From positions 1 through 36,928 of the IMG/VR virus record IMGVR_UViG_2778261565_000018: a DNA stretch of 36,928 bases; one strand, written 5' to 3'. Below the pieces are notes generated by a model. It was not told the origin of the DNA and ran no database searches. It worked only from the letters and a program-made list of their open reading frames with translations. This DNA is from a virus (lineage: Duplodnaviria > Heunggongvirae > Uroviricota > Caudoviricetes). Positions 6,952 to 33,692 of the stretch are shown here, in pieces (the stretch's first letter is position 1; every line of letters starts with the position of its first letter). The translations under genes and the position numbers were made by a program.

Positions 6952-7084
6952 TTTTTGGGACTCCTGGCTGATTAAGTATGTCGATAAGGCGTTTCCATCC
7001 GTCACGTAATTTACGGGTGATTCGTTCAAGTAAAGATTCGGAAGGGCAGCCAGCAACAGGCCACCCTGCAATGGCATATTGCAT
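6920..7084 (-). CDS. cIII: CIII (FtsH inhibitor), 54 aa
   Basis: Hand-translated [54 protein letters not shown]; overlaps kil 5' end by 32 nt. Confidence 0.85.
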   Translation of the reverse strand: MQYAIAGWPVAGCPSESLLERITRKLRDGWKRLIDILNQPGVPKNGSNTYGYPD

Positions 7085-7156
7085 GGTGTGCTCCTTATTT
7101 ATACATAACGAAAAACGCCTCGAGTGAAGCGTTATTGGTATGCGGTAACGCAGCGC

Positions 7157-14887: not shown

Positions 14888-15066
14888 GACGACAGCGACG
14901 AAGTATCACCGACATCATCTGCGAAAACTGCAAATACCTTCCAACGAAGCGCTCCAGAAATAAACGCAAGCCAATCCCAAAAGAATCTGACGTAAAAACC
15001 TTCAACTACACGGCTCACCTGTGGGATATCCGGTGGCTTAGAGAACGTGCGAGGAAAACAAGGTGA
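14884..15066 (+). CDS. ninE: NinE, 60 aa
   Basis: [30 protein letters not shown] matches lambda NinE. Confidence 0.85.
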
Positions 15067-15311
15067 TTGACCAAAATCGAAGTTACGAACAAGGAAGTGT
15101 CGAGCGAGCTTTAACGTGCGCTAACTGCGGTCAGAAGCTGCATGTGCTGGAAGTTCACGTGTGTGAGCACTGCTGCGCAGAACTGATGAGCGATCCGAAT
15201 AGCTCGATGCACGAGGAAGAAGACGATGTAAAAACGATGAATGTCGGGAATGGTTTCACCCTGCATTCGCCAATCAGTGGTGGTGCTCTCCAGAGTGTGG
15301 AACCAAGATAG
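15063..15311 (+). CDS. ninF: NinF variant (82 aa) with altered C terminus reading out of frame into the ninG region
   Basis: GTG start; first about 55 aa match lambda NinF, then continues across sequence that encodes Rap in another frame. Confidence 0.6.
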
Positions 15312-15814: not shown

Positions 15815-16482
15815 ATATCTACGAAAGAATTGATGGCAGCAAATACCGAAATATTTGGGTAGTTGGCGATCTGCACGGATGCTACACGAACCTGATGAAC
15901 AAACTGGATACGATTGGATTCGACAACAAAAAAGACCTGCTTATCTCGGTGGGCGATTTGGTTGATCGTGGTGCAGAGAACGTTGAATGCCTGGAATTAA
16001 TCACATTCCCCTGGTTCAGAGCTGTACGTGGAAACCATGAGCAAATGATGATTGATGGCTTATCAGAGCGTGGAAACGTTAATCACTGGCTGCTTAATGG
16101 CGGTGGCTGGTTCTTTAATCTCGATTACGACAAAGAAATTCTGGCTAAAGCTCTTGCCCATAAAGCAGAAGAACTTCCGTTAATCATCGAACTGGTGAGC
16201 AAAGGTAAAAAATATGTCATCTGCCACGCCGATTATCCTTGTGACGAATACGAATTTGGAAAGCCAGTTGATCATCAGCAGGTAATCTGGAACCGCGAAC
16301 GAATCAGCAACTCACAAGACGGGATCGTTAAAGAAATTAAAGGCGCGGACACGTTTATCTTTGGTCATACGCCAGCAGTGAAGCCACTCAAATTTGCCAA
16401 CCAGATGTATATCGATACTGGGGCAGTGTTCTGCGGAAATCTCACATTGATTCAGGTACAGGGAGAAGGCGCGTGGGCATAA
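15811..16482 (+). CDS. ninI: NinI Ser/Thr protein phosphatase (lambda PPase), 223 aa
   Basis: GDLHG and GNHE metallophosphatase motifs; recognised as lambda phosphatase. Confidence 0.9.
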
Positions 16483-16961
16483 GAGAACTAAACCTCACCA
16501 AAGAACAGCATGAGTGGCTGAATGGCTGGCTTGAACTGTGGGGCGCATGGGTTTATTCAGGTCGTCTGGAAAAGCGCATGAGCAGCGTAATAGCGACGTT
16601 CATGGAGAGCGTAGAGCCGGGAAGAGTTATGACAAGGCCAATGTGTAATGATGATGATGGAATGTTGATTTCTCAGGTCGTCGATTCCGTCATGTACATT
16701 GACAAGAAAGCCTTTGGAATCCTCCTCAGCTACTACGCTCATGGCTCTTCCAAGCACGCCATTGCATCTTACTATCATCGCGTCGCAAGACCTCGCAAGA
16801 TGTTATGCCGTGGCGGCGGGCGCATTCAAAAACCATCGCTCGCAACCTGTCGACGGGAAGTTGACGAAATCCTTAATGCCTCGTTGTTTATGATTTACCC
16901 GGTTCTGGATAGTGCGTTTAAAAATCGGAAACGTGTAGAGAAAATTAAACATGTAGCATAG
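16473..16961 (+). CDS. Q: Late-gene antiterminator Q (non-lambda type), about 162 aa
   Basis: Position between nin genes and lysis cassette; not lambda Q; GTG start overlapping ninI stop, start uncertain. Confidence 0.6.
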
Positions 16962-17052: not shown

Positions 17053-17127
17053 GGGTCAGTCGTATAAAGGTCATTACGGAAGGCTGTTAACCTTCTTATC
17101 GTGGTTCGAGTCCACGCTGTCCCGCCA
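17053..17127 (+). tRNA. tRNA-like gene, anticodon GUU (Asn) by manual fold; one U-U mismatch in acceptor stem
   Basis: Hand-folded cloverleaf: 5-bp anticodon stem GAAGG/CCTTC, loop CTGTTAA, T-arm CGTGG-TTCGAGT-CCACG, 3' GCCA. Confidence 0.5.
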
Positions 17128-17132
17128 AATAT

Positions 17133-17208
17133 GCTGGTTTAGCTCCAATGGTAGAGCAGTCGCCTTGTAAGCGAATGGGTAGCGGTTCAAGTCCGTTAAC
17201 CAGCACCA
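17133..17208 (+). tRNA. tRNA, anticodon UGU (Thr) by manual fold, encoded CCA
   Basis: Perfect 7-bp acceptor stem GCTGGTT/AACCAGC, D-arm GCTC/GAGC, anticodon loop CTTGTAA, T-loop TTCAAGT, ACCA end. Confidence 0.65.
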
Positions 17209-17450: not shown

Positions 17451-17774
17451 ATGAAGATGCCAGAAAAACATGACCTGTTAGCCGCCATTCTCGCGGCAAA
17501 GGAACAAGGCATCGGGGCAATCCTTGCGTTTGCAATGGCGTACCTTCGCGGCAGATATAATGGCGGTGCGTTTACAAAAACAGTAATCGACGCAACGATG
17601 TGCGCCATTATCGCCTGGTTCATTCGTGACCTTCTCGACTTCGCCGGACTAAGTAGCAATCTCGCTTATATAACGAGCGTGTTCATCGGCTACATCGGTA
17701 CTGACTCGATTGGTTCGCTTATCAAACGCTTCGCTGCTAAAAAAGCCGGAGTAGAAGATGGTGGAAATCAATAA
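17451..17774 (+). CDS. S: Holin/antiholin S (S107/S105 dual start), 107 aa
   Basis: [22 protein letters not shown] matches lambda S with Met1-Lys2-Met3 dual-start motif. Confidence 0.95.
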
Positions 17775-30943: not shown

Positions 30944-31277
30944 GTCTGAAGTTTTTAACTGGATCCCCCGCGAGGGGATGGAGACGACACGAAAGCCATC
31001 TGTTATTACGGTAAAGTTCGGTGACGGATATGAACAGCGACGGGCTGGTGGTCTGAATGCAGATCTGAAAACGTTTAAACCGGTATTTCGTGTCACGGAT
31101 GAATATTCCCGTGCCGCGCTGGACAGTTTTTTATCCCGTCATGCCGGGGTTCGTGCTTTTTTGTGGCGTCCGCCAAAACACAACAGGACTGTCCGGGTTG
31201 TCTGCAGGGAGTGGAGCATTTCGGATAATGCCATGTATACCGATTTTAACTGTACCTTTGAAGAGGTCACTCACTGA
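30936..31277 (+). CDS. M: Minor tail protein M (start ambiguous: GTG 30936 preferred, ATG 30975 alternative)
   Basis: FGDGYEQR and FLWRPP motifs as in lambda M; GGAGG 8 nt before GTG. Confidence 0.8.
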   Translation: MPESEVFNWIPREGMETTRKPSVITVKFGDGYEQRRAGGLNADLKTFKPVFRVTDEYSRAALDSFLSRHAGVRAFLWRPPKHNRTVRVVCREWSISDNAMYTDFNCTFEEVTH

Positions 31278-31975
31278 TGCAGGATATACAGCAGGAAACA
31301 CTCAATGAGTGCACTAAAACGGAGCAATCCGCGCTGGTCGTGCTCTGGGAAATTGATCTGACAGAGGTCGGCGGAGATCGTTATTTCTTCTGTAATGAGC
31401 AGAACGAAAAAGGTGAACCAGTCACCTGGCAGGGGCGGCAGTATCAGGCCTATCCCATTCAGGGAAGTGGATTTGAGATGAACGGCAAAGGAGCCAGTGC
31501 AAGGCCAACGCTGAAAGTCTCTAATCTGCACGGCATGGTCACCGGGATGGCGGAAGACCTGCAGAGTCTGGTCGGCGGAACGGTGGTCAGGCGTAAGGTT
31601 TACGCCCGTTTTCTGGATGTGGTGAACTTCGTCAACGGAAACAGCGAAGCCGATCCAGAGCAGGAGGTGATCAGCCGCTGGCGCATCGAGCAGTGCAGCG
31701 AACTGAGCGCGGTGAGTGCCTCTTTTGTACTGTCCACGCCGACTGAAACGGATGGCGCTGTTTTTCCGGGACGTATCATGCTGGCCAACACCTGCACCTG
31801 GACCTATCGCGGCGATGAGTGCGGTTATAGCGGTCCGGCGGTCGCGGATGAATATGACCAGCCGACGTCCGATATCACGAAGGATAAATGCAGCAAATGC
31901 CTGAGCGGCTGTAAGTTTCGCAATAACGTCGGCAACTTTGGCGGCTTCCTTTCCATTAACAAACTTTCGCAGTAA
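31277..31975 (+). CDS. L: Minor tail protein L, 232 aa
   Basis: Recognised as lambda L; C-terminal Cys cluster. Confidence 0.9.
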   Translation: MQDIQQETLNECTKTEQSALVVLWEIDLTEVGGDRYFFCNEQNEKGEPVTWQGRQYQAYPIQGSGFEMNGKGASARPTLKVSNLHGMVTGMAEDLQSLVGGTVVRRKVYARFLDVVNFVNGNSEADPEQEVISRWRIEQCSELSAVSASFVLSTPTETDGAVFPGRIMLANTCTWTYRGDECGYSGPAVADEYDQPTSDITKDKCSKCLSGCKFRNNVGNFGGFLSINKLSQ

Positions 31976-31984
31976 TGGATTATG

Positions 31985-32006
31985 CCCACCATCAGGTGGG
32001 TTTTTT
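31985..32006 (+). terminator. Intrinsic terminator after L
   Basis: CCCACC-atca-GGTGGG followed by T6. Confidence 0.6.
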
Positions 32007-32366
32007 GTTGTCATCACCAAGATATTTCTGCTTATATTCCTCTGAAAGAGGAATTGATCTTTCAACCATGCTAATAAGTTTATCTACTTGTTTTTTCTGT
32101 TTTTCTATGATTTCTAAAAGTTGAGGTATAAGTTTTTCATGCTCGCTTTTATCATATTTTCTGTTTATCGCATCTAGTTGTTCTTTAAACTGCTGAACGA
32201 TAGGACCATCCTCCGGCCCAAAATCACGACAAACACGAATCGCCAACTCAAGCAGAGTGACAATCTCAGCATTCATAGAACGATTATTTTGTTTTGATGA
32301 CGCTTCAATTATTTTTTTTAATTCAACAGGAAGCCTAATCCGAAGTTGAGGGTCTTCTCTACTCAT
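31992..32366 (-). CDS. Mnt-like ribbon-helix-helix repressor with C-terminal extension, 124 aa
   Basis: N terminus MSREDPQLRIRLPVELKKIIEASSKQNNRSMNAEIVTLL resembles P22 Mnt RHH; divergent from the arc/ant operon. Confidence 0.65.
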   Translation of the reverse strand: MSREDPQLRIRLPVELKKIIEASSKQNNRSMNAEIVTLLELAIRVCRDFGPEDGPIVQQFKEQLDAINRKYDKSEHEKLIPQLLEIIEKQKKQVDKLISMVERSIPLSEEYKQKYLGDDNKKPT

Positions 32367-32409
32367 ACCATTAGTCCAAACAGGAAAAATTCACAATAAG
32401 TAAATTATG

Positions 32410-32472
32410 CCCCACGGTGGGGTTGACTTCAATGACGCACGGTGTGACAATTTTGATTGCCCCACAGTGAGG
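32410..32472 (+). promoter_or_regulatory. Divergent promoter/operator region: palindrome CCCCACGGTGGGG (32410-32422), TTGACT -35 (32423-32428), second half-palindrome GCCCCACAGTGAGG (32459-32472)
   Basis: Perfect 13-bp palindrome next to a -35 hexamer; related copy 50 bp downstream near the arc-like gene RBS. Confidence 0.55.
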
Positions 32473-32489
32473 CTATTTAAGGAGTGGAG

Positions 32490-32657
32490 ATGGAAAAAGC
32501 AAAAGACATGTATCAACGCAAGGTTCGTTTCCCAGAGGATGTAAGGAAGGCGATTGAAAGAAATGGAGAAAAAGAGTGTCGACAGTTCAACACGGAACTT
32601 ATTTATCAATTGAGAAAAGTGTACGGACTGATTGGAGAGAAGAATGCTAGGACATAA
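32490..32657 (+). CDS. Arc-like ribbon-helix-helix repressor, 55 aa
   Basis: Hand-translated MEKAKDMYQRKVRFPEDVRKAIERNGEKECRQFNTELIYQLRKVYG resembles P22 Arc; AAGGAG RBS 5 nt before ATG. Confidence 0.65.
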   Translation: MEKAKDMYQRKVRFPEDVRKAIERNGEKECRQFNTELIYQLRKVYGLIGEKNART

Positions 32658-32726
32658 AAATAGCGAAGCCCGACAGTGCGCGAACACAAATCGGGCTTCT
32701 ATGTCAGTAACTTCCAAGGAACTAAC
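32655..32726 (-). ncRNA. Predicted Sar-like antisense RNA covering the ant RBS
   Basis: Minus-strand promoter TTGATA-17 bp-TATACT (plus-strand 32733-32761) with -10 overlapping the ant start; minus-strand terminator is the perfect 9-bp hairpin at 32665-32699 plus T-rich tail. Confidence 0.5.
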
Positions 32727-32729
32727 GAA

Positions 32730-33650
32730 ATGAGTATAGCAACAGCGGTATCTACTATCAACGTGCCATTCCACGGCGCAGAGCTTTATGTCGTCAATCA
32801 CAACGGCGAACCGTACACCCCAATGAAACCTATCGTTGAGGGAATGGGTATGGATTGGGCTTCACAGTTTACAAAGTTAAAACAAAGATTTGCTAAAGGT
32901 ATTGTGGAAATCGCAATACCTTCAGTTGGCGGTATGCAGACCATGATTTGCCTTGCTTTGCGTAAACTGAATGGTTGGCTCCAAACCATCAGTCCTAACA
33001 AAGTCCGCCCTGAAATCCGCGAGAAGGTAATCCAGTATCAGGAAGAGTGTGACGATGTGCTCTACGAGTACTGGACTAAAGGCCATGTGATTAACCCGCG
33101 CAAAGCTAAAAAGGCGTTGCCGGGTAAAATCACCACTGAACAGCAGGAAGCCATTAAACAACTCGTCATGAGTCGCGGTCAGTCTCTGCCAAAAGAAAAA
33201 CAGGCTAAGGCGATGATCACCATGTGGTCGTCACTGAAATCCCATTTTGGATGTTCGTACAAAGAAATTAGTGAGGAGCAGTTTACCGAAGCACTGTCAC
33301 TTGCTGCTCGCGTTCCGCTTGAAGGTGAGTTCATTGGCAAACAAGAGAAGAAAACCAACGAGCTTTCCGCAAAAGAAGCAAACAGCCTTGTATGGCTGTG
33401 GGATTATGCTAACCGCTCACAGGCATTATTCCGCGAATTGTATCCAGCGCTAAAGCAAATTCAATCGAACTATTCCGGCAGATGTTACGACTACGGCCAT
33501 GAGTTCTCGTATGTTATTGGAATGGCGAGAGACGTTTTAATCAATCACACACGAGATGTTGATATTAATGAGCCAGATGGACCAACGAATCTTTCCGCAT
33601 GGGTAAGGCTTAAGAGCAAAGAGTTGCCGCCTTCACTGCATCACTACTAA
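32730..33650 (+). CDS. ant: Antirepressor Ant (P22 Ant-like N-terminal domain), 306 aa
   Basis: N-terminal region (LYVVNHNGEPYTPMKPIVEGMGMDW) resembles P22-type antirepressor; AAGGA RBS; downstream of arc-like gene. Confidence 0.7.
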   Translation: MSIATAVSTINVPFHGAELYVVNHNGEPYTPMKPIVEGMGMDWASQFTKLKQRFAKGIVEIAIPSVGGMQTMICLALRKLNGWLQTISPNKVRPEIREKVIQYQEECDDVLYEYWTKGHVINPRKAKKALPGKITTEQQEAIKQLVMSRGQSLPKEKQAKAMITMWSSLKSHFGCSYKEISEEQFTEALSLAARVPLEGEFIGKQEKKTNELSAKEANSLVWLWDYANRSQALFRELYPALKQIQSNYSGRCYDYGHEFSYVIGMARDVLINHTRDVDINEPDGPTNLSAWVRLKSKELPPSLHHY

Positions 33651-33668
33651 CAGATTACCAACGAAATG

Positions 33669-33692
33669 ACCCAGCCTCGGCTGGGTTTTTTA
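33669..33692 (+). terminator. Intrinsic terminator after ant
   Basis: ACCCAGC-ctcg-GCTGGGT followed by T5. Confidence 0.6.

Follow-up and report, generated by a model that had tools for sequence, protein, structure and literature searches.

The mnt-arc-ant module carried by a lambda-like prophage of Escherichia coli very probably encodes a small cis-antisense RNA of about 70 nt, a diverged homologue of the sar RNA of phage P22, that would block translation of the antirepressor Ant. The predicted gene lies on the minus strand of a 36,928-nt stretch of viral DNA (IMG/VR record IMGVR_UViG_2778261565_000018; hereafter the window), at the junction of an arc-like gene and ant (Table 1). Covariation across the family, strand asymmetry and the nucleotide-level conservation of a promoter within ant codons all argue for an RNA gene on the minus strand, and a block on antirepressor translation is, by analogy with P22, its most likely function. 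The element is recognisable by its promoter, its hairpins and U-run, its complementarity to the ant ribosome-binding site, its homology and synteny with the P22 immI region and, across relatives, by covariation, strand-specific folding and constraint on the promoter. The sar family has been known since 1987, and the element described here is, judged by its sequence, an expected part of a known regulatory module, a diverged sar member residing in a different type of phage, namely a lambda-like E. coli prophage.

The predicted promoter of this RNA is embedded in the coding sequence of the gene it would control. An earlier note on this DNA, made from the letters alone, had proposed a near-consensus minus-strand promoter (TTGATA, 17 bp, TATACT) whose -10 element overlaps the first codons of ant, and both points were borne out. 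The -10 hexamer TATACT is found at 32738-32733 (-), with a TG two bases upstream and a spacer of 17 nt to the -35 hexamer; reading 32733-32741 on the minus strand gives the extended -10, TGCTATACT. As the ant ATG occupies 32730-32732, the -10 hexamer coincides with ant codons 2-3 (AGT ATA), and the TG falls within codon 4 (GCA). The promoter scores 10/12 against the sigma-70 consensus, ranks at the top of six promoter-like sites in a 3-kb scan, and is the sole match of at least 10/12 on either strand in a scan of the whole 36.9-kb window. A GC-rich terminator hairpin lies about 60 nt downstream on the same strand. A 10/12 promoter followed by a hairpin and T-run 40-100 nt downstream is expected 0.03 times per dinucleotide-shuffled window, and such a pair arose anywhere in only 2 of 100 shuffled windows. 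The locus offers a clean textbook example of a promoter embedded in coding sequence.

The 5' end of the predicted RNA was placed by analogy with the annotated 5' end of P22 sar, 7 nt past the -10 element, and its 3' end falls within the U-run. A start near 32726 and a size of about 70 nt, as given in the earlier note, agree with this homology-based prediction, the start being homologous to the annotated P22 sar 5' end. The 72-nt stretch 32726-32655 folds as two hairpins with a free energy of -28.3 kcal/mol, compared with -14.7 +/- 2.9 for dinucleotide shuffles (z = -4.7; 0/200 shuffles equal). The first hairpin presents an anti-Shine-Dalgarno (anti-SD) sequence in its loop, UCCUUGGAAGUU. The second is built on a perfect 9-bp pairing, which in plus-strand letters joins GAAGCCCGA (32665-32673) with TCGGGCTTC (32691-32699) and on the minus strand joins GAAGCCCGA (32699-32691) with UCGGGCUUC (32673-32665). 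Read as minus-strand RNA, the stem gains a tenth pair (G.U), which is followed by a 4-bp inner helix. The tail after the hairpin is GCUAUUUUUA on the minus strand and TATGTCAGTA, without a T-run, on the plus strand. Thus, the perfect 9-bp stem followed by a T-rich tract, and the lack of a T-run on the plus strand, were both correctly described before. The claim that the transcript would run antisense across the ribosome-binding site and the start codon of ant stands in its first part, since the predicted RNA covers the Shine-Dalgarno (SD) sequence and the spacer; its second part probably does not hold, as an RNA starting at 32726 would fall 4 nt short of the ant AUG.

Comparison with P22, for which facts were taken from the GenBank annotation, Rfam and later open-access papers, supports feature by feature the resemblance in layout and size to Sar of P22 immI that had been noticed earlier. 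In the P22 record NC_002371, sar occupies 15021-15090 (-), its promoter Psar 15097-15125 (-) and the sar terminator 15021-15058, with the ant ATG at 15091; sar, Psar and the sar terminator have the same relative positions as the elements of the window, and P22 sar ends 1 nt before the ant AUG. Both RNAs lie antisense between the arc or arc-like stop and the ant ATG, opposite the ribosome-binding site of ant, and both promoters lie in the first ant codons and share an identical -10 9-mer, TGCTATACT. The distance from the -10 element to the 5' end is equal, the RNA beginning with GUUAGU in the window and with GUUGGU in P22. Also common to the two are a 6-bp 5' stem (GUUNGU with ACUGAC, the 3' arm ACUGAC being identical), an anti-SD loop, a terminator built on the core GAAGCCC...GGGCUUC, a U-tract that reaches into the arc stop codon, an RNA length near 70 nt and flanking Arc, Mnt and Ant homologues. 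The two 70-nt RNAs have 51 identical positions in a 78-column alignment, and the predicted fold of the window RNA, with two hairpins and UUUUU in 70 nt, matches the consensus architecture of the Rfam family RF00262 (sar).

There are also differences between the two RNAs. The 5' loop of the window RNA has 12 nt (16 in P22) and its spacer 3 nt, and its terminator consists of a 10-bp outer stem, an internal loop and a 4-bp inner helix, whereas that of P22 is a single 14-bp stem with a 4-nt loop. The window has the better -35 element (TTGATA vs GTGTTA) and the better U-run (UUUUU vs CUUU). In P22, a podovirus, the module lies beside the tailspike gene, while in the window it is found between genes L and K of a lambda-like long-tailed prophage. 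P22 sar is visible in small-RNA sequencing of infected cells and is said to be described in several phage genomes (PMC13397905), and the P22 immI region tunes lysogeny frequency (PMC11016777). In the searchable open-access literature, sar is treated for P22, and in the P22-like phage epsilon34 it figures as a predicted gene.

Relatives of the locus were collected through an Ant protein search, which gave 152 loci (viral contigs and one genome per species) and 95 distinct upstream regions. The extended -10 (TGnTAnnnT) and a long GC-rich hairpin are both present in 61 of the 95 regions and both absent from 28, and only 6 regions have one without the other, a co-occurrence with a Fisher p of 2e-17 without correction for relatedness. 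This tabulation uses a stem-based terminator criterion; a criterion of at least four T in six was dropped because it excluded the experimentally defined P22 sar terminator (tail AACTTTAC). A -35 element of TTGATA or TTGATT at 17-nt spacing occurs in 40 of the 61 sar-positive relatives. Among the 49 unique predicted RNAs, the length from start to terminator is 68-79 nt in every case, and the loop of the 5' hairpin always contains an anti-SD-like motif.

Covariation was assessed in 53 sequences that were aligned on the model, with a length-consistent subset as the seed. In this alignment, 94% of cells are in standard pairs, compared with 34-48% when the partners are slid by 1-3 columns, and compensatory changes occur in 16 of 20 pairs (5/6 in the 5' helix and 11/14 in the terminator). 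The observed covariation values were reached by 0/500 shuffles. Additionally, the terminator helix was obtained independently when RNAalifold was given 32 RNAs aligned by plain MAFFT, and compensatory changes were seen there in 9 of 12 pairs; only this helix was obtained because plain MAFFT scrambled the 5' hairpin, whose loop and spacer lengths vary.

The conserved promoter could also be explained if Psar acted mainly by transcriptional interference, with convergent polymerases colliding or occluding the traffic from the arc-ant promoter and the RNA being a by-product. Convergent promoters can interfere with each other generally, and the Psar-like and Pant-like (32423-32451, +) promoters of the window face each other about 270 bp apart; interference is also compatible with conservation of the promoter. 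However, interference alone would need neither a two-hairpin RNA with an anti-SD loop nor compensatory changes in both helices nor a length kept within 68-79 nt, and PMC12197685 lists P22 sar as an RNA that acts in trans and pairs with ant mRNA. Interference is thus unlikely as the main mode of action, although it may add to the effect of the RNA.

Strand asymmetry bears on a second explanation, according to which the hairpin is an element of the plus-strand arc-ant mRNA, such as a processing site, stabiliser or attenuator, and the promoter match is a by-product of the Ant N-terminus. The hairpin does partly form on the plus strand, and the -35 element overlaps a conserved protein motif, but the minus strand folds more stably in 49/49 unique RNAs (mean -28.9 kcal/mol vs -19.5 kcal/mol for the plus strand), because what is a G.U pair there would be an A.C mismatch in the mRNA sense. 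On the minus-strand side the tail is T-rich in most relatives, whereas plus-strand tails are T-poor and that of the window has no T-run. The codons covered by the promoter speak against a protein-level origin as well. Specifically, TGnTAnnnT (AnTnTAnCA on the plus strand) at ant codons 2-4 is invariant in 61/61 sar-positive relatives, while the -10 9-mer exists in 13 nucleotide variants that encode 12 tripeptides (SIA, SLA, SVA, SVS, IIA, ILA, TIA, NLA, TIS, SIP, SLP and SIS), all keeping AnTnTAnCA. The amino acids drift and the promoter bases stay fixed, a pattern that indicates nucleotide-level constraint on the promoter. Promoter and hairpin, moreover, co-occur across upstream regions. This makes an origin in the plus-strand mRNA highly improbable, and a plus-strand terminator or attenuator was rejected on account of the missing T-run and the weaker plus-strand fold. 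Still less credible is that the hairpin and U-run are a mere insulating terminator against stray leftward tail-gene transcription into arc and mnt, unrelated to the promoter: the hairpin is a plausible minus-strand intrinsic terminator, but its spacing from the promoter is fixed in the family, the intervening 5' hairpin covaries, and its homologue in P22 is sar's own terminator.

Several observations weigh against the assignment to sar. RF00262 gives no match in the window at its gathering threshold (43 bits) and none at E <= 10 on 32300-33000, and RefSeq NZ_CP062871, which holds a 98.6%-identical E. coli prophage, has no RNA gene annotated at this site. A simple terminator scan of 3 kb did not call the hairpin, because its outer loop exceeds 8 nt and its U-run begins 4 nt past the stem. 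The 6-bp 5' helix alone is not significant against shuffles of the window sequence (p ~0.11). Conservation of the -35 element says little, because the element coincides with the conserved Thr-Ile-Asn protein motif. Finally, the sequences share ancestry and were aligned for the covariation analysis by fitting them to the model, so the shuffle and Fisher statistics stand without phylogenetic correction. As regards the hairpin, the 4-nt gap between stem and U-run is a family trait, common to the experimentally defined P22 sar terminator. For the 5' helix, single-sequence shuffle tests are weak (p 0.01-0.3), and its weight is carried solely by the compensatory pattern seen across the family.

The silence of RF00262 can be related to the breadth of the family. 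RF00262 scores 97.8 bits on P22, but only 44.8 bits, just over its 43-bit threshold, on TL-2011b, the closest phage relative of the window in this region, and it detects only 5 of 20 representative relatives. The model is too narrow and recognises only close relatives of P22, so annotation pipelines miss the sar RNA in many enterobacterial prophages. Seven homologues (Erwinia, Klebsiella, Yersinia, Lonsdalea, Rosenbergiella, Providencia and the Stx2a phage WGPS8) served to build a broader covariance model, R1, with both the window and P22 excluded. R1 finds a single match in the window, 32657-32726 (-), at full length with 57 bits and E ~1e-10, and it also recognises P22 sar at full length (45.6 bits). 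Intermediates such as TL-2011b are recognised by both models. A broader model such as R1 would annotate sar RNAs that RF00262 misses. The Rfam scan of the window also gave weak matches to symR, CRISPR-DR28 and a hairpin ribozyme (14-17 bits, E 2-7), which pick up no more than the GC-rich stem and were set aside as chance matches.

Taken as a diverged sar, the element would operate along the lines of P22, and it is from this paradigm that its transcription, its 3' end, its pairing with ant mRNA and its effect on translation are inferred. The sigma-70 extended -10 promoter within the first 11 ant codons would fire leftward and constitutively, producing a transcript that begins about 4 nt upstream of the ant AUG (~32726), crosses the arc-ant intercistronic region and stops at the intrinsic terminator whose U-tract overlaps the arc stop (~32657). 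This RNA would fold into a 5' hairpin offering the anti-SD sequence in its loop, followed by the terminator hairpin. Being fully complementary to the ant mRNA leader, it would pair with the leader, probably from the 5' loop, and occlude the ribosome-binding site, blocking Ant translation. In this way, the RNA would add a post-transcriptional layer to the repression that the Mnt-like and Arc-like proteins exert on the arc-ant promoter. Antirepressors decide prophage silence and can induce other prophages in the same cell, and a full immI-type circuit including the RNA layer would help to predict the induction behaviour of this E. coli prophage.

Other small phage RNAs offer partial parallels. 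c4 RNA is encoded on the same strand as its target, in an upstream part of their shared operon, and is released from the longer transcript by processing. It differs in this from the predicted window RNA, a convergent cis-antisense transcript, and resembles it in neither sequence nor structure; no c4-type Rfam match was found in the window at the gathering threshold or on 32300-33000 at E <= 10. The resemblance is one of function, as c4 of P1/P7 (immI of P1) is a small phage RNA that blocks antirepressor synthesis by pairing around the ant ribosome-binding region (PMC12197685), where the window RNA is also predicted to block antirepressor synthesis. OOP RNA of lambda and lambdoid phages is a 77-nt cis-antisense RNA with its own constitutive promoter and intrinsic terminator that controls a lysis-lysogeny regulator (PMC12197685). 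The window RNA is similarly short and cis-antisense, with its own predicted promoter and intrinsic terminator and a lysis-lysogeny regulator as its target. In contrast to the predicted window RNA, OOP is described as targeting the cII 3' end through RNase III-dependent mRNA decay rather than by ribosome-binding-site occlusion. It is encoded at another locus and has no homology to the window RNA.

Table 1. Features of the predicted antisense RNA, its promoter and its module, with R1 matches at other loci (window coordinates unless a locus is named)
Feature	Position	Strand	Details
Predicted sar-like antisense RNA, ~70 nt	32726 to ~32657	minus	from covariance model and fold
-35 hexamer TTGATA	32761-32756	minus	inside ant codons 9-11 (Thr-Ile-Asn motif); 5/6 match to consensus
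Extended -10 TGcTATACT	32741-32733	minus	reverse complement of AGTATAGCA; ant codons 2-4, Ser-Ile-Ala
5' hairpin	32726-32703	minus	arms GUUAGU (32726-32721) and ACUGAC (32708-32703); 12-nt loop UCCUUGGAAGUU
Terminator hairpin	32699-32665	minus	10-bp outer stem GAAGCCCGAU/GUCGGGCUUC including one G.U, and 4-bp inner helix
U-run UUUUU after hairpin	32660-32656	minus	overlaps arc-like stop TAA (32655-32657)
Shine-Dalgarno AAGGA of ant	32716-32720	plus	9 nt upstream of ATG 32730; covered by the predicted antisense RNA
ant, antirepressor, 306 aa	32730-33650	plus	Pfam P22_AR_N (E 9e-45), P22_AR_C (E 6e-30)
arc-like ribbon-helix-helix gene, 55 aa	32490-32657	plus	Pfam Arc 19.1 bits, just below the 20.4 cut-off
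mnt-like ribbon-helix-helix repressor gene, 124 aa	31992-32366	minus	Pfam Arc E 3e-7; divergent from arc-ant
Control region	32404-32472	both	Pant-like (+), Pmnt-like (-), three operator-like repeats
R1 matches before other antirepressor architectures	L101 448-518; L115 422-492; L112 657-727; L132 1286-1358; L134 1223-1292; L138 1357-1428		

The protein-coding surroundings are those of an immI-type module (mnt-like, arc-like, ant) in an E. coli prophage, as judged by homology. In BLASTP comparisons, the ant product is 57% identical to P22 Ant, the arc-like protein 33% identical to P22 Arc over 40 aa, and the mnt-like protein 33% identical to the N-terminal domain of P22 Mnt; the arc-like start codon is the ATG used by RefSeq and annotated in NZ_CP062871. 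In the control region, a Pant-like promoter TTGACT-17-GACAAT at 32423-32451 (+) and a Pmnt-like promoter at 32432-32404 (-) stand face to face and overlap, together with three 15-bp operator-like repeats, TGCCCCACGGTGGGG, TGACGCACGGTGTGA and TGCCCCACAGTGAGG, exactly 25 bp apart (32408-32472). Their core CACGGTG resembles the P22 mnt operator (CCACGGTGG), and the P22 record displays the same overlapping arrangement of Pant, Pmnt and operator. The three-gene insert sits between the lambda-like tail genes L (31277-31975) and K (from ~33705). Terminator-like hairpins with T-runs flank it at 31984-32001, just past tail gene L, and at 33668-33687, between ant and K, as would be expected of a self-contained 'moron' that was inserted into the late tail operon. 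Over the module, the window shares 98.6% identity with the E. coli prophage in NZ_CP062871 and, likewise, 98.6% with E. coli Res13-Lact-PEA14-20, while E. coli CFSAN018748 matches 32600-32770 at 100% identity. The window allele is rare: at >=95% identity, it occurs in 6 of the 5,426 complete genomes of E. coli.

R1 also finds sar-like matches directly upstream of genes of other architectures (Table 1), namely Phage_pRha + KilAC (ANT) genes in Xenorhabdus and Morganella and Bro-N genes in Yersinia and Brenneria. These genes begin M-x-(S/I/N)-(I/L/V)-A, and their leaders carry the extended -10. The occurrence of such elements before Rha+KilAC and Bro-N genes suggests a portable cassette and possibly RNA specificity classes. 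In its widest form, the idea is tentative and on balance doubtful: sar would be a cassette spread across Enterobacterales prophages far beyond the reach of RF00262, with look-alikes in Moraxellaceae and at least three antirepressor architectures, and its variable 5' hairpin and leader alleles would define RNA specificity classes. The promoter may then be written into the first four codons (M-x-S/T-I/L/V-A) of the gene it controls, whether of the P22_AR_N/C, Rha+KilAC or Bro-N architecture. If this were true, a resident sar would silence the ant gene of incoming or co-resident phages with the same leader allele and not that of others, and the specificity classes would resemble the c4-based heteroimmunity of P1/P7.

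Mosaicism is visible among the relatives in both directions. The same sar and leader allele is found with different Ant N-termini (L077 and L083 vs L003; L051, L052 and L065 vs L009), and one Ant N-terminus is found with three different sar alleles (L006, L008 and L009). The recombination junctions therefore seem to be at or near the conserved AGTATAGCA promoter block.

Different arrangements precede Ant homologues elsewhere. In Acinetobacter and Psychrobacter (L114, L119, L124, L126 and L127), an unrelated-looking hairpin with a strong minus-strand T-run lies upstream, and a TAAACT or TATACT -10 is found in the first codons, with the TG extension in L126 only. These elements could be remote analogues in function, or else sar RNAs that have diverged so far as to fall below the R1 threshold. 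At six Xenorhabdus loci (L107, L110, L113, L125, L128 and L152), neither a promoter nor a terminator of the sar type precedes the Ant homologue; another conserved structure is present there, whose 12-bp stem is the better one when read on the plus strand. About 1 kb upstream of a Photorhabdus ant module, a hok/sok-type sok antitoxin RNA (RF01794, 98.7 bits) was found at L097 411-556 (+).

Two further features of the window lie away from the module. Two adjacent tRNA genes, Asn-GTT and Thr-TGT, occupy 17053-17208 (+), downstream of the open reading frame (ORF) 16473-16961, which we take to be possibly a late-gene regulator, and just upstream of ORFs 17451-18698, presumably lysis genes from their appearance; stx genes were looked for after the two tRNA genes in the window and none were found. 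A full-length lambda cIII thermoregulator RNA element (RF01804, 88.5 bits) is located at 7039-7097 (-).

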